Shown: positions 3,671 through 10,455 of the stretch, in pieces
Layout: the number at the start of each line of letters is the position of its first letter
How positions within the stretch are numbered: the first letter of the stretch is position 1
Origin: a virus
Lineage: Duplodnaviria > Heunggongvirae > Uroviricota > Caudoviricetes
Length of the DNA stretch: 12,090 nucleotides
IMG/VR virus record: IMGVR_UViG_2778261395_000003
Reading direction: 5' to 3' (one strand)
Made by a program: the position numbers and the translations under genes
Notes under the pieces: generated by a model
What the model saw: only the letters and a program-made list of their open reading frames with translations
What the model was told of the DNA's origin: nothing
The model's database searches: none

Positions 3671-3894
3671 TGCCGGACAACGTAGATTTCATTCAGGAAC
3701 AACAGGCTGAATTACTGGAGCGCCAGATTAACGCGGCAAGGGTAAAACATAGCGGTGTTTCTGCGCTGGTTTGCGAAGAGTGTGACGCGCTAATACCTGC
3801 TGCCCGTCGTGCGGCTTATCCGTCAGCCACGCGTTGTGTTTCCTGTCAGTCAGTCTTTGAAGCAAAAAACAAACATTACCGGAGAACGGCATGA
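3670..3894 (+). CDS. DksA/TraR-type C4 zinc-finger protein (74 aa), P2 orf82 position
   Basis: CEEC-x17-CVSC (C-x2-C-x17-C-x2-C) is the spacing of the zf-dksA/traR family. Start overlaps the upstream stop (TAATG). Confidence 0.6.
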   Translation: MPDNVDFIQEQQAELLERQINAARVKHSGVSALVCEECDALIPAARRAAYPSATRCVSCQSVFEAKNKHYRRTA

Positions 3895-4166
3895 GTATTC
3901 GTATTGAAATTGGCGAACGTTATGTCGTTACCAGTGACAGCTTTCAGTTTATTCTCCACGAGAAAAAGAGAGCGGAAAGCGGTAAAAACGCCGGTCAGGA
4001 ATGGCTGGCGGTGGTTGGTTATTACCCGAAATTAAGCCAGCTCGTTTCCGGCCTGATGCATCACGATATTCTGACCGGAAGCGCAAAGTCTTTTGCTGAT
4101 TTAAACGCGCAGGTTGAGCAACTCAGCAGGCGTTGTTCAGAGGCTTTGGGCTCATATGGCCGTTAA
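3891..4166 (+). CDS. Hypothetical early protein (91 aa), P2 orf83 position
   Basis: ATGA overlap with the upstream gene. Its end overlaps the A start, indicating translational coupling. Confidence 0.55.
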   Translation: MSIRIEIGERYVVTSDSFQFILHEKKRAESGKNAGQEWLAVVGYYPKLSQLVSGLMHHDILTGSAKSFADLNAQVEQLSRRCSEALGSYGR

Positions 4167-6423
4167 AGCCTCCGGGCGTTTTGTCCCTCCGTCAGCATTT
4201 GCCGCAGGCATCGGTAAGACGTTTACCGGTGCTTATGCATGGAACGCGCCACGCGAGGCTGTCGGGCGCGAAAGACCCCTTACACGTGACGAGATGCGTC
4301 AGGTGCAAGGTGTTTTATCCACGATTAACCGCCTGCCTTACTTTTTGCGCTCGCTGTTTACTTCACGCTATGACTACATCCGGCGCAATAAAAGCCCGGT
4401 GCACGGGTTTTATTTCCTCACATCCACTTTTCAGCGTCGTTTATGGCCGCGCATTGAGCGTGTGAATCAGCGCCATGAAATGAACACCGACGCGTCGTTG
4501 CTGTTTCTGGCAGAGCGTGACCACTATGCGCGCCTGCCGGGAATGAATGACAAGGAGCTGAAAAAGTTTGCTGCCCGTATCTCATCGCAGCTATTCATGA
4601 TGTATGAGGAACTCTGCGATGCCTGGGTGGATGCGCATGGCGAAAAAGAATCACTGTTTACGGATGAGGCGCAGGCGCATCTGTATGGTCATGTTGCTGG
4701 CGCTGCGCGTGCTTTCAATATTTCTCCACTTTTCTGGAAAAAATACCGTAAAGGACAGATGACCACGAGGCAGGCATATTCTGCCATTGCCCGTCTGTTT
4801 AACGATGAGTGGTGGATTAATCAGCTTAAAGGCCAGCGTATGCGCTGGCATGAGGCATTACTGATTGCTGTCGGGGAGGTGAATAAAGACCGTTCTCCTT
4901 ATGCCAGTAAACATGCCATTCGTGATGTACGTGCACGCCGCCAGGCAAATCTGGAGTTTCTTAAATCGTGTGATCTCGAAAACAAGGAAACCGGCGAACG
5001 CATTGACCTTATCAGTAAGGTGATGGGAAGCATTTCTAATCCTGAAATTCGCCGTATGGAACTGATGAACACCATCGCCGGTATTGAGCGTTACGCCGCC
5101 GCAGAGGGTGATGTGGGGATGTTTATCACGCTGACCACGCCGTCAAAGTATCACCCGACACGTCAGGTCAGAAAAGGCGAAAGTAAAACCGTCCAGCTAA
5201 ATCACGGCTGGAACGATGAGGCATTTAATCCAAAGGATGCGCAGCGTTATCTCTGCCGTATCTGGAGCCTGATACGCACGGCATTCAAGGATAATGATTT
5301 ACAGGCCTACGGTTTGCGTGTTGTTGAACCACACCACGACGGAACGCCGCACTGGCATATGATGCTTTTTTGTAATCCACGCCAGCGTAACCAGATTATT
5401 GAAATCATGCGTCGCTATGCGCTCAAAGAGGATGGCGACGAAAGAGGAGCCGCGCGAAACCGTTTTCAGGCAAAACATCTTAACCGGGGCGGTGCTGCGG
5501 GGTATATCGCAAAATACATCTCAAAAAACATCGATGGCTATGCACTGGATGGTCAGCTCGATAATGATACCGGCAGGCCGCTGAAAGATACTGCTGCGGC
5601 TGTTACCGCATGGGCGTCAACGTGGCGAATTCCGCAATTTAAAACGATTGGCCTGCCGACAATGGGGGCTTACCGTGAACTACGCAAATTGCCTCGCGGC
5701 GTCAGTATTGCTGATGAGTTTGACGAACGCGTCGAGGCTGCTCGCGCTGCCGCAGACAGTGGTGATTTTGCGTTGTATATCAGCGCGCAGGGTGGGGCAA
5801 ATGTCCCGCGCGATTGTCAGACTGTCAGGGTTGCCCGTAGCCCGTCGGATGACGTTAACGAGTACGAGGAAGAAGTCGAGAGAGTGGTCGGCATTTACGC
5901 GCCGCATCTCGGCGCGCGTCATATTCATATCACCAGAACGACGGACTGGCGCATTGTGCCGAAAGTTCCGGTCGTTGAGCCTTTGACTTTAAAAAGCGGC
6001 ATCGCCGCGCCTCGGAGTCCTGTCAATAACTGTGGAAAGGTCACCGGTTGTGATACTTCGTTACCGGCTCCCACACCTTCTGAGCACGCCGCAGCAGTGC
6101 TTAATCTGGTTGATGACGGTGTTATCGAATGGAATGACCCGGAGGTTGTGAGGGCGCTCAGGGGCGCATTAAAACACGGCCTGAGAACGCCAAATCGTCA
6201 GCAAAGAAACGGAAGCTCGTTAAAACCACATGAAATTGCACCATCGGCCAGACTGACCCGGTCGGAAAGAATGCAAATTACCCGTATCCGCGTTGACCTT
6301 GCTCAGAACGGTATCAGGCCGCAGCGATGGGAGCTTGAGGCGTTGGCGCGCGGGGCAACAGTAATTTATGACGGTGAGCGGTTTAGTTATGCTGTAAAAG
6401 ACGATTGGGTGATGTTTTCTTAA
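4156..6423 (+). CDS. A: Rolling-circle replication initiator, P2 gpA / phiX174 gpA superfamily
   Basis: HUH motif H-W-H-M-M-L at 5350-5367. Paired catalytic tyrosines in Y-I-A-K-Y-I-S-K (Y codons at 5503-5505 and 5515-5517), resembling the phiX174 A active site. Start placed at ATG 4156; the track's TTG at 4114 has no spacer after its Shine-Dalgarno-like sequence. Confidence 0.9.
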   Translation: MAVKASGRFVPPSAFAAGIGKTFTGAYAWNAPREAVGRERPLTRDEMRQVQGVLSTINRLPYFLRSLFTSRYDYIRRNKSPVHGFYFLTSTFQRRLWPRIERVNQRHEMNTDASLLFLAERDHYARLPGMNDKELKKFAARISSQLFMMYEELCDAWVDAHGEKESLFTDEAQAHLYGHVAGAARAFNISPLFWKKYRKGQMTTRQAYSAIARLFNDEWWINQLKGQRMRWHEALLIAVGEVNKDRSPYASKHAIRDVRARRQANLEFLKSCDLENKETGERIDLISKVMGSISNPEIRRMELMNTIAGIERYAAAEGDVGMFITLTTPSKYHPTRQVRKGESKTVQLNHGWNDEAFNPKDAQRYLCRIWSLIRTAFKDNDLQAYGLRVVEPHHDGTPHWHMMLFCNPRQRNQIIEIMRRYALKEDGDERGAARNRFQAKHLNRGGAAGYIAKYISKNIDGYALDGQLDNDTGRPLKDTAAAVTAWASTWRIPQFKTIGLPTMGAYRELRKLPRGVSIADEFDERVEAARAAADSGDFALYISAQGGANVPRDCQTVRVARSPSDDVNEYEEEVERVVGIYAPHLGARHIHITRTTDWRIVPKVPVVEPLTLKSGIAAPRSPVNNCGKVTGCDTSLPAPTPSEHAAAVLNLVDDGVIEWNDPEVVRALRGALKHGLRTPNRQQRNGSSLKPHEIAPSARLTRSERMQITRIRVDLAQNGIRPQRWELEALARGATVIYDGERFSYAVKDDWVMFS

Positions 6424-6506: not shown

Positions 6507-7829
6507 ATGAGTGCGTTAAGGGATGAAGTATCTATGAAGGTTGCGTTCTCTAATGGCATGATAAACAAATTATGCAAAAGTTTTTTTTATAGTCATGGTA
6601 AGGAGCAGCCTTGTATCCAAGTCGGTAAAGCATTAGAAGATTTTGTTTTTTGGCTTGCATATAATGATGAGGAGATTGCAAAATGTGCTAGTAGGTTATT
6701 AAAAGCATATGGCCCCCAATTAGGTATAAGTGACCTTCACAATGCGAAAAGATTATTGTTAGGTTTTTGTTCTGAAGCCTTCAATCGCATTGATGCTGAT
6801 TTTCTGTCGCTTAATCCTGATAAGATTTGTGTTGATGATATTATAACGCAAGTTCATAGAAAAAATCTTAGTGAGATGTTTAAGTATTATATACTTTCAC
6901 GAATAAAATCCTGTCCGTATATTTATAATCTTGGGTGTGCTGGCTTTGATGGGAAGCTTGAGCTTAGAGAAAATTTATTTTTATATGGCCCGGGGCTAGG
7001 GGTGGAATTAATTTCTGATATTAAAGACAAAACTGACATCAAGGTTCCTGTTGATTTTTATGATGATGAATATATGCGGCATAAACCAATTGGGAAATAT
7101 TTTCGACAGTCAAAATCCTGCTTGGTGGTGGCATATGCTTCATCAGAGGATAAAGCGGTGAAAATGTTTGATAGTTTGTTTGGAGCTTTATGTCTTGCGG
7201 TTGATAATCCTTTTGCGATTAATCGAGTTGCTGTTAATAATCTAGTTGAGTCTTTTGGTGTCGGGAAATATCATGAAAGTGAGTTTCGGGTGAATATTCC
7301 GTCTGTATATAATTTAAATATAACGGATTCAGCCTTGGCGATACTTACAAAAATACTTTCATCACCTGATAAAAGGATGTTGTCTGCTCTTTCCTTTATA
7401 GCGCACGGGTGGAGGGATGACAAACGTGAAAGGTTTTTGAATCAATTTATAGCATTGGATGCTATGTATGGAACCAATAATGGTAATAAAAATTCAATTA
7501 TTGGCGGTGTTTGCAGAGATGCGGCGAAAATTATTGATATTGATTCAAAAATAGGAATAATCTATGAGCTTAGGTGTAAGTTTGTTCATGGAGATATTTC
7601 ATCGTTATCTGATAATGATAGCTATCGAAAGTTTATTGATAGCTATGGCGTGGACCCTATTGTTTCTCTTTTTGAAATTCTTAAAGAATGCGTCCTTAAT
7701 TATAATGGTACTTACAAAACGCCAAAAGATGTTGGAAAGGCAGATAGGTCTATTTGCGTTCCTGCTGAGTTGCTTCCAGCGGTTGAGAGGATGATAGCGG
7801 AATACAGTGGAGTTAAAAAAACAAACTAA
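6507..7829 (+). CDS. AT-rich orphan cargo protein (440 aa); candidate defence or abortive-infection effector with an R-x4-H motif
   Basis: Long ORF with AAGGAA ribosome-binding site 9 nt upstream. GC is about 25-35 percent against about 55 percent in the adjacent A gene. Occupies the A-to-cos slot. No Walker A motif. C-terminal YELRCKFVHGD contains R-x4-H (R codon 7572-7574, H codon 7587-7589). Confidence 0.75.
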   Translation: MSALRDEVSMKVAFSNGMINKLCKSFFYSHGKEQPCIQVGKALEDFVFWLAYNDEEIAKCASRLLKAYGPQLGISDLHNAKRLLLGFCSEAFNRIDADFLSLNPDKICVDDIITQVHRKNLSEMFKYYILSRIKSCPYIYNLGCAGFDGKLELRENLFLYGPGLGVELISDIKDKTDIKVPVDFYDDEYMRHKPIGKYFRQSKSCLVVAYASSEDKAVKMFDSLFGALCLAVDNPFAINRVAVNNLVESFGVGKYHESEFRVNIPSVYNLNITDSALAILTKILSSPDKRMLSALSFIAHGWRDDKRERFLNQFIALDAMYGTNNGNKNSIIGGVCRDAAKIIDIDSKIGIIYELRCKFVHGDISSLSDNDSYRKFIDSYGVDPIVSLFEILKECVLNYNGTYKTPKDVGKADRSICVPAELLPAVERMIAEYSGVKKTN

Positions 7830-7970
7830 AGATGTTCTTTTTAGCCTCGCCTGCATTAGGTGCATAAATTTGCATTCATTTTCAAATATATCTTTTGACA
7901 GCGAGCACCAGAACAGGCGCTTGCCGGGGGGATGATGCACCTGCATTAAAACCGCCCCATGAAGCGGGCG

Positions 7971-7989
7971 GGCGAGGCGGGGAAAGCAC
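7971..7989. other. cos site: 19-nt P2/P4-type cohesive-end sequence GGCGAGGCGGGGAAAGCAC
   Basis: Exact match to the P2/P4 cohesive-end sequence as I recall it. It sits in a GC-rich non-coding island (about 7895-8040) between two AT-rich blocks, at the position expected between the A side and Q. Confidence 0.65.
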
Positions 7990-8122
7990 TGCGCGCAATG
8001 ATGTCAGTTTGAGGGCATCAGGCATGGGGACACTACACAGTTTCATTTTTGTTATTAATTGTTTATCATATAAGTGTTTGTTTTTTGAACGGCATGTCGT
8101 GTGCTATATGGAGTGAATAGAA

Positions 8123-8392
8123 GTGACTAAATTTGACAAAAAAAAAGCAATTTCTATTTTAACAGAAAAAAAAGCCTTGCTCCCATGTCATCGGTGTGGA
8201 AATTCAAAGTTCATCATTTTGGATGGCATATCATCACTTCCATTAATGGAAAATATGGAAATGATTGGTAGTATTGTTGTTGGCGGAATGAATGCTCCTG
8301 TATTACATGTGGCATGTGAGAATTGTGGTGCAGTTACTTCACATTTGCTTGGGGCACTTGGTTTAATGCCGGAGATTAAATCAAATGACTAA
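8123..8392 (+). CDS. Small zinc-ribbon protein (89 aa), first gene of a two-gene cargo module
   Basis: GTG start with GGAG 8 nt upstream. Two C-x2-C pairs (CHRCG and CENCG) about 40 residues apart. AT-rich. Overlaps the next gene by 8 nt. Confidence 0.6.
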   Translation: MTKFDKKKAISILTEKKALLPCHRCGNSKFIILDGISSLPLMENMEMIGSIVVGGMNAPVLHVACENCGAVTSHLLGALGLMPEIKSND

Positions 8393-8855
8393 GGGTGTTT
8401 TTTTCTCTGATGAAGGTAGTGGTAAAAAAAGTGCTGTCTTGCATGGGGCGCAGGTTACAATAAACCCTGATTCGCAATTTACAAAAAAGATAATTAGGCA
8501 GACTGAGGTTGATGTTATTGTGATAAGTGATGATAAACTTCATATAATTTTGACGAATTGCTTATCTAAAATTGCATCATTAAACCGCTGGTCAACACCT
8601 TTGGGTATTTTAATTACCTTGGCGGTAACTATGTTAACCACAAATTTTAAGAATTTTATTCTTCAGGATTCTGTGTGGGAGGCTGTTTTCTGGATGCTTA
8701 TTTTTTTTAATATTATCTGGTTGGTGAAAAACATTCCATATAGACACTTATTTTTAACTGTTTGTCATTCTATAGGGGTTCGTAAAGATAAAAAAAGAAT
8801 TAGTGATGTATACCACATTATAGATATAATTAAACAAGGTGATACACGCTTTTGA
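8385..8855 (+). CDS. Small membrane protein (156 aa) with two predicted transmembrane helices, second gene of the cargo module
   Basis: Two hydrophobic stretches (WSTPLGILITLAVTMLTT and AVFWMLIFFNIIWLV) after a roughly 65-aa soluble N-terminal region. ATG overlaps the upstream gene's end. AT-rich. Confidence 0.65.
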   Translation: MTKGVFFSDEGSGKKSAVLHGAQVTINPDSQFTKKIIRQTEVDVIVISDDKLHIILTNCLSKIASLNRWSTPLGILITLAVTMLTTNFKNFILQDSVWEAVFWMLIFFNIIWLVKNIPYRHLFLTVCHSIGVRKDKKRISDVYHIIDIIKQGDTRF

Positions 8856-8888
8856 TTTAATATCAATATTTGATTGAGTATATAATAA

Positions 8889-8911
8889 AGCCGCCTGAGT
8901 TTATGGCGGCT
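8889..8911 (-). terminator. Hairpin downstream of the Q remnant, possible intrinsic terminator
   Basis: 7-bp GC-rich stem AGCCGCC/GGCGGCT with a 9-nt loop. On the minus strand it is followed by UUUAUUAUAU, immediately 3' of the Q stop. Confidence 0.4.
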
Positions 8912-8931
8912 AATATAGGGTGTGTGCTAAG

Positions 8932-9936
8932 TCATAATGTGTATTTGTTGAATCTAATTATTTCTTCGCCAACCCATTCATTAAGGGCAATAAAGCGAGA
9001 TTGAATAGGAGTAAGCTCATTGCGGACAAAGACCTTTGCCACTTTCTCAATATCACCCAGCGACCCGACGTTCTCCGGCTTGCCGCCCATCAACTGAAAG
9101 GGGATGCGGTGCGCGTCCAGCAGGTCAGCGGCGCTGGCTTTTTTGATATTAAAAAAATCGTCCTTCGTTGCCACTTCACTGAGCGGGATAATTTTAATGC
9201 CGTCGGCTTTCCCTTGCGGGGCATAGAGAAACAAATTTTTAAAGTTGTTGCGGCCTTTCGACTTCACCATGTTTTCGCGAAGCATTTCGATATCGTTGCG
9301 ATCCTGCACGGCATCGGTGACATACATGATGTATCCGGCATGAGCGCCGTTTTCGTAATACTTGCGGCGGAACAGCGTGGCCGACTCATTCAGCCAGGCA
9401 GAGTTAAGGGCGCTGAGATATTCCGGCAGGCCGTACAGCTCCTGATTGATATCCGGCTCCAGCAGGTGAAACACGGAGCCGGGCGCGAAGGCTGTCGGCT
9501 CGTTGAAGGACGGCACCCACCAGTAAACATCCTCCTCCACGCCACGGCGGGTATATTTTGCCGGTGAGGTTTCCAGTCTGATGACCTTACCGGTGGTGCT
9601 GTAACGCTTTTCCAGAAACGCATTACCGAACACCAGAAAATCCAGCACAAAGCGGCTGAAATCCTGCTGGGAAAGCCACGGATGCGGGATAAATGTCGAG
9701 GCCAGAATATTGCGTTTGACGTAAATCGGCGAGCTGTGATGCACGGCAGCACGCAGGCTTTTCGCCAGACCGGTAAAGCGAAACCGGTCACGCAGAAGAA
9801 AGCGCCAAAAGTACCGGAAGCGCGCGAAGGTGAATACATGGCCGGTGAGGCTGACAACGTTTTTGCCCTGACCACGGTATATGCCACGAAAGCGCAGGCC
9901 ATGCGCGCCGCTCAGGCGAAGTGGGACAAACTGCAA
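8932..9936 (-). pseudogene. Q: Portal protein gpQ-like remnant, N-terminally truncated and fused to antisense D sequence
   Basis: The C-terminal roughly 250 aa look like genuine protein. The first roughly 80 codons are R/F-rich low-complexity sequence lying antisense to the D-fragment frame, so the true 5' part of Q is probably missing. Confidence 0.7.
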
Positions 9937-10155
9937 CGGGGCGTCGCGGAGTTCTCCATCAGCCTGGCTACCGGTCGGGCTGATATTTACACGGAAACAC
10001 CGGTTAAAGTGTCAGGCTTTAAGCGCGTCATAGACGAGCAGGACTGGACAATCACTAAGGTGACACATTTTCTGAATAATAGCGGCTTCACGACGTCCTT
10101 AGAGCTTGAGGTCAGGCTTTCTGATGTGGAGTACGAAACAGAAGATTATGAGTGA
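9682..10155 (+). pseudogene. D: 3' fragment of tail gene D (gpD C-terminal region); yegZ-like remnant
   Basis: The C-terminal sequence (VSGFKRVIDEQDWTITKVTHFLNNSGFTTSLELEV) matches the conserved end of P2 gpD-family proteins as I recall it. The ORF is far too short for a full D (about 387 aa) and sits directly upstream of ogr. The first in-frame ATG within the clearly D-like part is at 9838. Confidence 0.7.
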
Positions 10156-10236
10156 TGTCTTTTGTTTATCTGTTTGTTTTGTAAGGATAAATTAACTAAA
10201 ATGGCACTATCAACAAAACCGGAAGAGGTGCTCGCG

Positions 10237-10455
10237 ATGTTTCATTGTCCTTTATGCCAGCATGCCGCACATGCGCGTACAAGCCGCTATATCACTGACA
10301 CGACAAAAGAGCGTTATCACCAGTGTCAGAACGTGAATTGCAGCGCCACGTTCATCACCTATGAGTCGGTACAGAGATACATCGTGAAGCCGGGAGAAGT
10401 CCACGCCGTAAGGCCGCACCCGTTGCCGTCAGGGCAGCAAATTATGTGGATGTAA
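10237..10455 (+). CDS. ogrK: Ogr-type zinc-finger late-gene transcription activator (72 aa)
   Basis: C-x2-C-x22-C-x4-C (CPLCQ ... CQNVNC) zinc-binding motif. 72 aa from ATG 10237. Last gene before attR and followed by a strong intrinsic terminator. Confidence 0.85.
   Translation: MFHCPLCQHAAHARTSRYITDTTKERYHQCQNVNCSATFITYESVQRYIVKPGEVHAVRPHPLPSGQQIMWM

Follow-up and report, generated by a model that had tools for sequence, protein, structure and literature searches.

The gene pair between cos and Q

We examined a 12,090-nucleotide (nt) stretch of DNA (hereafter the window) filed as the Caudoviricetes record IMGVR_UViG_2778261395_000003, and within it two small overlapping open reading frames, ORF1 and ORF2, situated between the cohesive-end site cos and the portal gene Q of a P2-like prophage. 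Judging from its sequence and that of its relatives, we regard the pair as a promising candidate for a new defence or toxin system, small in size and of a generally familiar kind. It is part of a large family that lacks annotation and whose members probably act at the membrane as anti-phage or toxin modules. The window is a piece of the Escherichia coli chromosome and is identical to strain GF4 across the part compared (7850–8950). ORF1 (8123–8392, + strand) begins with GTG, follows a GGAG Shine-Dalgarno sequence (8110–8113, + strand) placed 9 nt upstream of the GTG, and encodes 89 amino acids (aa; WP_087891114). ORF2 (8385–8855, + strand) begins with ATG and encodes 156 aa (WP_023567683). The start of ORF2 is embedded in the stop of ORF1, so that the genes share the 8-nt overlap ATGACTAA (8385–8392, + strand), and a second GGAG lies at 8371–8374; because of this overlap we consider the two genes to be translationally coupled. 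An earlier sequence-only reading of the window had already given the coordinates of both frames, their 8-nt overlap, two CxxC pairs in ORF1, two transmembrane (TM) segments in ORF2 and the AT-richness of the region, and all of these were confirmed.

Several observations speak for the reality of the two genes. The Prokaryotic Genome Annotation Pipeline (PGAP) of RefSeq calls the same two coding sequences in the GF4 record. Among Enterobacterial variants with unsaturated synonymous divergence (dS), the ratio of nonsynonymous to synonymous divergence (dN/dS) is 0.05–0.24 for ORF1 and 0.12–0.36 for ORF2, and in tblastn searches both proteins match the adjacent gp27 and gp28 of Arthrobacter phage Shoya. 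Since dN/dS is low and the homologues are adjacent in an actinobacterial phage, ORF1 and ORF2 are real genes under purifying selection. In every pair that we examined, homologous genes keep an overlap of 4–11 nt or a 1-nt gap.

On its left the region is bounded by the P2-type cos cohesive-end sequence GGCGAGGCGGGGAAAGCAC, read directly at 7971–7989; the same motif recurs in cos-proximal sequences cloned from P4 and P2 elements (Rousset et al. 2022, Table S2A, PMC9122126). Homology to the P2-like phage NC_041848 covers 7935–7996, ends at 7996 and restarts at 9008, and these BLAST breakpoints delimit an AT-rich swapped segment (7997–9007) of 1011 bp against 254 bp in that phage. Its guanine-cytosine (GC) fraction is 0.31–0.37 over 8000–9000, compared with 0.50–0.56 in the flanking P2 core genes. 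Inserted AT-rich DNA between cos and Q is indeed present, as the sequence-only reading had it, but its extent must be corrected from about 0.9 kb to 1.0 kb, including the last ~25 codons of Q. These codons (8932–9007, − strand) are unlike those of the reference P2-like Q; as they belong to the swapped segment, cassette exchange recombines inside the 3′ end of Q. ORF2 and Q converge on a GC-rich 7-bp hairpin (8889–8911) with RNA folding z-scores of −2.5 (+ strand) and −3.1 (− strand) and a U-rich tail on the Q strand, which is likely a bidirectional terminator.

The interval gpA–cos–gpQ is a hotspot of anti-phage systems in P2-like prophages, several of them validated by experiment (Rousset et al. 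2022, PMC9122126), and later surveys, PMC13586616 among them, confirmed this A–Q hotspot along with others within tail genes. The pair behaves as cargo of this hotspot, lying between A and Q beside cos and differing between otherwise similar prophages. Moreover, WP_087891114 and WP_023567683 are listed together with WP_001288417 as three 'hypothetical' proteins in Table S5A of Rousset et al. (PMC9122126). The insertion site is therefore not a new one, contrary to what the sequence-only reading had claimed, being part of a published P2 defence hotspot. In short, the position is known, and the gene family is catalogued yet uncharacterised.

ORF1, a four-cysteine zinc-ribbon protein

ORF1 contains exactly four cysteines, at positions 22/25 and 65/68, which form two CxxC pairs with the overall spacing C-x2-C-x39-C-x2-C. 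In 36 diverse homologues the four cysteines, F30, G69 and H74 are invariant, and a C-terminal H-x-LGALGLLP motif is conserved across the same sequences. In the AlphaFold2 model (mean predicted local distance difference test score, pLDDT, 79) a short helix at the N-terminus precedes a zinc ribbon of three strands. The product of ORF1 is thus a small, soluble, cytoplasmic zinc-ribbon protein with four cysteines.

Its relationship to described zinc-binding families is at most distant. ORF1 does not match the Ogr/Delta zinc finger (PF04606), for which the ogr gene of the window itself scores 76 bits, and the C-x2-C-x22-C-x4-C spacing of that family is absent from it. The match to PF14354 (Lar_restr_allev) reaches 17.8 bits (E = 0.004; model positions 2–33 of 58), below the gathering cutoff of 28.6 bits, and 30 of the 36 zinc-ribbon members match the same model weakly, the best at E = 3e-4 (for members other than ORF1 we rely on E-values alone). 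We read these matches as a distant relationship among zinc ribbons rather than as family membership. Lar of the Rac prophage resembles ORF1 in being a small, prophage-borne four-cysteine zinc ribbon; in contrast, the alignment spans only half of the model, and neither the H-x-LGALGLLP motif nor a partner with two TM helices (2TM) is a feature of Lar.

Codons 6–17 of ORF1 carry two homopolymer tracts, A9 (8138–8146, + strand) and A8 (8166–8173, + strand), whose lengths vary between genomes. In the complete genome of TK3889 the first tract is A8, so that ORF1 is frameshifted, and ORF2 is intact. In the 88-aa variant P0014 the stretch between the tracts is out of frame and the sequence after them is in frame again; we read this as one change in each tract, with the frame apparently restored. 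Such differences in tract length could reflect phase variation or long-read assembly error. Truncated variants of ORF2 exist as well.

ORF2, a predicted helical hairpin in the inner membrane

Kyte-Doolittle analysis of ORF2 gives hydrophobic segments at residues ~69–88 and ~96–116. In the AlphaFold2 model (mean pLDDT 67) residues 1–39, which belong to a variable N-terminus, are disordered, a long helix runs into TM1, and a turn of ~9 residues leads to TM2, followed by two short basic C-terminal helices; the TM helical hairpin itself is modelled with pLDDT 80–94 over residues 60–120. Lysine and arginine residues number nine in the N-terminal part, one in the loop and eight in the C-terminal part, and by the positive-inside rule both ends are predicted to be cytoplasmic. 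ORF2 is accordingly predicted to be an inner-membrane protein anchored by a helical hairpin, with a periplasmic loop of ~7 residues and a conserved cytoplasmic segment (residues ~35–68, VIVISDDKLHIIL). One face of TM1 bears a polar stripe (S70, T71, G74, T78, T82, T85 and T86 within ~160 degrees). Taken from the model, this topology and the stripe would be compatible with an oligomeric pore regulated from the cytoplasm.

A hairpin of this kind might also serve lysis, with ORF2 acting as a class II-like two-TM holin and ORF1 as its regulator in a holin/antiholin arrangement. Two TM helices, cytoplasmic ends and a basic C-terminal tail all suit a class II holin, and the Shoya pair lies a few genes downstream of the endolysin and holin of that phage; but ORF2, at 156 aa, has a cytoplasmic N-terminal region of ~68 residues, and no holin family in Pfam or PHROGs matches it. 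The intact P2-like carriers of the pair have a full Y-K-LysA/B/C cassette elsewhere and the pair runs convergent to the late operon; in ECC-1470, whose prophage is intact, ~6.6–8 kb separate the pair from the holin, endolysin and LysB genes of that operon. The pair is also kept in non-phage contexts and on a small plasmid. A lysis accessory is on this evidence highly improbable.

Small inner-membrane proteins of prophages are classic exclusion agents, T4 Imm and P22 SieA being well-known cases. By analogy, ORF2 might block the injection of phage DNA or the entry of plasmids, with ORF1 as an accessory or assembly factor. The Shoya pair occupies a typical position of a moron expressed in the lysogen, between the tail-fibre genes and the immunity/integrase region, and the accessory genes old, tin and Z/fun of P2 are exclusion genes (PMC9122126). 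Against this, the predicted periplasmic exposure is ~7 residues and the conserved parts of ORF2 are cytoplasmic or intramembrane. Known superinfection-exclusion (Sie) proteins do not show such a near-obligate soluble cytoplasmic partner. The family is also common outside prophages, in chromosomal islands, on the chromosomes of metagenome-assembled genomes (MAGs) and on small plasmids, and some members carry cytoplasmic-type C-terminal fusions (e.g., PcrA/UvrD Tudor, CarD RID). The very short predicted loop and the many non-phage contexts speak against classic exclusion, which the sequence-only reading had named alongside abortive infection, and we hold an exclusion device to be improbable.

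Distribution and mobility of the pair

A near-identical pair is rare, being present in eight of 5426 complete E. coli genomes. Seven of the eight have it at the same cos–Q position in P2-like prophages, 99.4–99.9% identical from base 7936, at cos, rightwards. Terminase and capsid genes, which the window has lost, are still present in the three of these seven that we inspected, and to the left of cos the same three carry a DUF7380 gene where the window has a 440-aa HEPN/ApeA-like gene (6507–7829, + strand, on the A side of cos). Since the same pair occurs beside different cargo on the left, the two sides of cos assort independently. In this sense the pair is a second, independent insertion, as had been supposed, although the site belongs to the hotspot of Rousset et al.

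A variant with ~60% protein identity is found in several further settings. Four more E. coli genomes have it in a 186-like prophage, at the A–Q hotspot; P2-like prophages of Klebsiella carry it on the opposite strand, flanked by the tail genes S and V; in Proteus faecis and Serratia marcescens it lies on the chromosome away from phage genes; and a 4.6-kb mobilisable Col plasmid of K. pneumoniae has it immediately after rep. The S–V site is the one where P2 carries the non-essential orf30. The pair further occurs in a gammaproteobacterial MAG, in Syntrophales and in elements with an integrase and a replication gene. A scan of GTDB species representatives returned no close relatives of ORF2. Overall, this distribution indicates that the pair is a self-contained, horizontally mobile accessory cassette of two genes that are inherited together.

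A cassette like this could also be an addiction module, in which ORF2 would be a membrane toxin and ORF1 its labile proteic antitoxin, loss of the module would kill the cell, and no dedicated anti-phage role would be involved. Gene order points that way: a small soluble gene stands first and overlaps its neighbour by 4–11 nt, as in type II toxin-antitoxin (TA) systems, and the pairing of these adjacent small genes (8-nt overlap here) is conserved. So does the company that the pair keeps, given the copy behind rep on the Col plasmid, its survival in a decayed prophage remnant, and the other TA genes (HicB, ParE, PIN/PhdYeFM) near homologous loci. On the other hand, the Pfam and NCBIfam scans place no helix-turn-helix (HTH), ribbon-helix-helix (RHH), AbrB or Phd-type domain in ORF1 with which a type II antitoxin would regulate its own operon, and the candidate toxin is a membrane protein, not an enzyme. 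An intact ORF2 behind a frameshifted ORF1 in TK3889 also sits poorly with a toxin held in check by ORF1, unless the frameshift is a sequencing error or is offset by the loss of coupling, and a 2TM homologue at one locus (L025) has no upstream partner at all. We consider pure addiction unlikely, although it is the main rival of the explanation favoured below; a pair working as a TA system might still abort infections.

A wider family with interchangeable partners

From 1.84 billion representative proteins, a profile of ORF2 retrieved 1131 clusters at E ≤ 1e-3, of which 175 reached E ≤ 1e-10. The members are mostly 115–160 aa long and match ORF2 residues ~35–117. Their common core consists of a cytoplasmic I-x-I-T-E/D-D-K-L...L motif, W-x-x-P-L-G...T-T-x-F in TM1, an F-K/x-D-F motif in the loop and W-x-A-x-F...W-L in TM2; among 150 representatives, D50, L56, W69, P72, F88, W98, F102 and W112 are conserved in at least 90%. 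We name this family TEDKL-2TM here, defining it by the core motifs and a small soluble gene directly upstream, both of which ORF2 has. No Pfam model covers the core, and ORF2 itself matches phrog_32870 (E = 1.7e-9), a family of unknown function. A search among homologues for conserved pairing and neighbourhood, which the sequence-only reading had proposed, found the pairing and a mobile-element or defence-type setting conserved across phyla: even very distant members with 27–30% identity to ORF2 (L026, L027) keep a zinc-ribbon gene directly upstream.

The partner can nevertheless vary. In a metagenome sample of one 2TM subgroup with 52 assessable loci, the gene upstream of the 2TM gene encodes a zinc ribbon in 34, a ~120-aa DUF6864 protein in ~15 and neither in ~3, so that a small soluble partner from one of two unrelated families is present at ~49 of them. 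DUF6864 takes the same upstream, overlapping position as the zinc ribbon and seems to stand in for it as a partner within one family of membrane proteins. By analogy with immune systems, of which a constant component combined with swappable ones is typical, such a modular pattern would support an immune role for the pair. It should be added that, as in the case of Panacea, antitoxins too reportedly swap between unrelated partners.

A minority of members have C-terminal additions: DnaJ-like_C11_C in 9 of the 150 representatives, PcrA/UvrD Tudor in 4, and in others a domain resembling 3-keto-disaccharide hydrolases, zinc ribbons or the CarD RID domain. In a Syntrophales MAG (L020, 2149–3684 and 4263–5411), the 2TM protein accompanying the zinc ribbon has an extra C-terminal domain of ~250 aa, and this pair adjoins an AbiV-type HEPN protein. 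The diversity of the soluble domains fused to the 2TM unit suggests that it may anchor proteins in the membrane or serve as an oligomerisation scaffold rather than kill. The pair might then have some other membrane function to the advantage of the host or the element: it might tether or sequester a cytoplasmic host factor at the membrane, bring about lysogenic conversion or act in counter-defence related to the Lar-like zinc ribbon, and the occurrence of some loci among ordinary metabolic genes, as well as the frequent though weak PF14354 matches described above, would agree with such a role. Yet the Lar score of ORF1 is below the Pfam threshold and matches of this kind are common among generic zinc ribbons, the strong conservation of the polar residues in TM1 would be unusual in a mere anchor, and mobility together with the hotspot context favours a function in conflict. 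We find a membrane role of this other kind unlikely.

The neighbourhood of the family was surveyed through 133 flanking ORFs at 35 loci. Neighbours include nine tyrosine integrases, two resolvases, a Mu-type portal, two HicB and two AbiV-type HEPN proteins, ThsA, ThsB, GajB, bSEFIR and the PADLOC candidates PDC-S15 and PDC-S05. The association of these loci with mobile elements is clear and that with defence genes is moderate. At one locus (L028, 3020–5357) a DUF6864 and 2TM pair with an 8-nt overlap lies directly downstream of the Thoeris genes ThsA (Macro) and ThsB (TIR).

A possible gated membrane effector

The explanation that we favour, with a rough probability of 0.4, is that ORF1 would be a zinc-ribbon regulator or sensor gating a pore-forming membrane effector, ORF2, and that the outcome would be abortive infection. 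ORF1, made first and in matched amounts, would bind the conserved cytoplasmic segment of ORF2 and keep it closed. A phage-derived cue might then remove, titrate or alter ORF1, or be sensed by it. Once released, ORF2 could form an oligomeric pore or ion leak by way of the TM1 face that is rich in Ser, Thr and Gly, depolarise the inner membrane and abort the infection, which would protect the population of lysogens and hence the prophage. More tentatively still, it is tempting to suppose that the pair represents, in E. coli, a widespread and unnamed cross-phylum anti-phage system in which a 2TM pore effector may combine with interchangeable zinc-ribbon or DUF6864 sensors on prophages, small plasmids and integrative elements. 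Besides the modularity of the partners, abortive infection gains support from the way in which the cassette hops between accessory and defence hotspots, namely the A–Q region, the S–V tail site and the Col plasmid.

Several points weigh against this explanation. The architecture is also that of a plain toxin-antitoxin pair. Without a 2TM gene, the zinc ribbon is found directly upstream of a 148-aa GNAT acetyltransferase in Spirochaetia (L010, 6001–6696) and alone among housekeeping and metabolic genes in Rhodospirillaceae (L019, L021), and so is not exclusively a partner of 2TM proteins. Defence-type neighbours are found in a minority of the loci surveyed, where many neighbours are housekeeping genes. 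A consensus scan of 8040–8122 yielded no convincing sigma-70 promoter. In PADLOC-DB v2.0.0 neither ORF1, ORF2 nor eight distant members of the family had a match at E ≤ 1 other than the spurious one given below, and scans of both proteins and their relatives against Pfam, NCBIfam and PHROGs gave, apart from phrog_32870, sub-threshold zinc-ribbon and TM noise. Sequence searches of the PDB with the family profiles returned nothing meaningful, and fold searches of the pair nothing diagnostic. Finally, in the parts of the supplementary tables of Rousset et al. available to us, the pair was not found among the cloned and tested systems (PMC9122126). A sensor-like part in abortive infection or superinfection exclusion, as first suggested, finds no family of known function behind it in PADLOC, Pfam, NCBIfam or the PDB, and we can only infer it.

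Two candidates that turned up in these scans were rejected. The only consensus promoter match nearby (8133–8160) falls within ORF1, so that its transcript would lack the sequence for the conserved N-terminus, and a Cas12a match in PADLOC (E = 0.06) is spurious.

Known membrane effectors were compared individually. ORF2 has no match to SLATT or other 2TM effector domains of Pfam, nor to 8xMP (PF24838); among the 150 family members three give weak matches to 8xMP (best E = 0.003), and SLATT models are absent from the families listed. With hhalign no relationship emerged between the ORF2 family and the membrane protein of the 'hydrolase+3TM' system. Our literature search found nothing relevant on the accessions of the pair, DUF6864, 8xMP or defence pairs of a zinc ribbon and a TM protein.

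A parallel in logic is that of lambda RexA/RexB and mycobacteriophage Sbash gp30/gp31, where a cytoplasmic sensor or regulator expressed from the prophage acts with an inner-membrane protein that collapses the membrane potential on infection. RexB has four TM helices, and RexA is a protein of ~280 aa without a zinc ribbon. The logic is the one that we propose for the pair by analogy; no homology was detected, PADLOC giving no match. P4 gop-beta-cII likewise places a small 2-TM protein beside cos in an element of the P2/P4 family; that component is toxic without its partner and abortive infection has been proposed (PMC9122126). However, the P4 system has three genes and no zinc ribbon, and hhalign assigns Gop and the ORF2 family a probability of 1.7%. 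Other cargo of the A–Q hotspot (old/tin, DprA-PRTase, AC1 TIR with a TM protein) resembles the pair in occupying a cos-adjacent slot and in being AT-rich, swappable and independently combined (PMC9122126), and membrane proteins are the presumed effectors of some of its systems, validated neighbours among them (PMC9122126). The pair differs from the tested hotspot systems in showing no sequence relationship to them and in lying on the Q side of cos, whereas old/tin lie on the A side. With type II TA systems it shares two small co-directional overlapping genes, the soluble one first, a residence on mobile elements and interchangeable partners.

Should the pair prove to be an immune module, defence systems would gain a compact member (0.73 kb) of wide distribution, in which a simple membrane effector is combined with either of two types of sensor, and which would be a convenient model for the gating of membrane-disrupting effectors by small soluble proteins. 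A function would be provided, too, for DUF6864 and for a family of more than 1000 clusters without a Pfam model. If it is merely a TA pair or an inert moron, it would be a routine passenger of the hotspot. As regards P2 biology, the Q side of cos, and not the A side alone, carries swappable cargo, and one and the same cassette moves among plasmids, the S–V tail hotspot and the hotspot at cos.

The surrounding prophage remnant

The prophage lies between a 105-aa lipoprotein-like ORF (1–318), which we take to be yegR, and yegQ on the far flank, and its late genes have been lost. It retains int (584–1597, − strand), the C repressor gene (1713–2012, − strand) and cox (2127–2402), followed by early genes and the replication gene A (4114–6423). 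On the far side of the pair, the portal gene Q (8932–9936, − strand) lacks its N-terminus, is annotated by PGAP as a pseudogene and runs into a C-terminal fragment of gpD (9682–10155), after which comes ogr. As 8932–10455 shows, the prophage is a deletion remnant, with capsid, lysis and tail genes all gone. At the same locus E. coli K-12 presumably keeps only ogrK/yegZ.

RefSeq names the AT-rich 440-aa gene on the A side of cos 'HEPN domain-containing protein', and its product matches phrog_23812 from end to end. PADLOC and Pfam scans of it gave no match. It corresponds to system 45, 'HEPN_Apea', with 84 occurrences in Table S5B of Rousset et al. (PMC9122126), and is probably a separate defence gene.

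One further observation concerns the genome records themselves. In many complete E. coli chromosome records the cos match falls at exactly position 3695 (3695–3841 in the match table). The GF4 record begins at the first base of P2 gpA, and the other such records probably do likewise. These assemblies may have been rotated to the prophage 'replication' gene instead of dnaA, which would make the recurrent position an artefact of assembly orientation.

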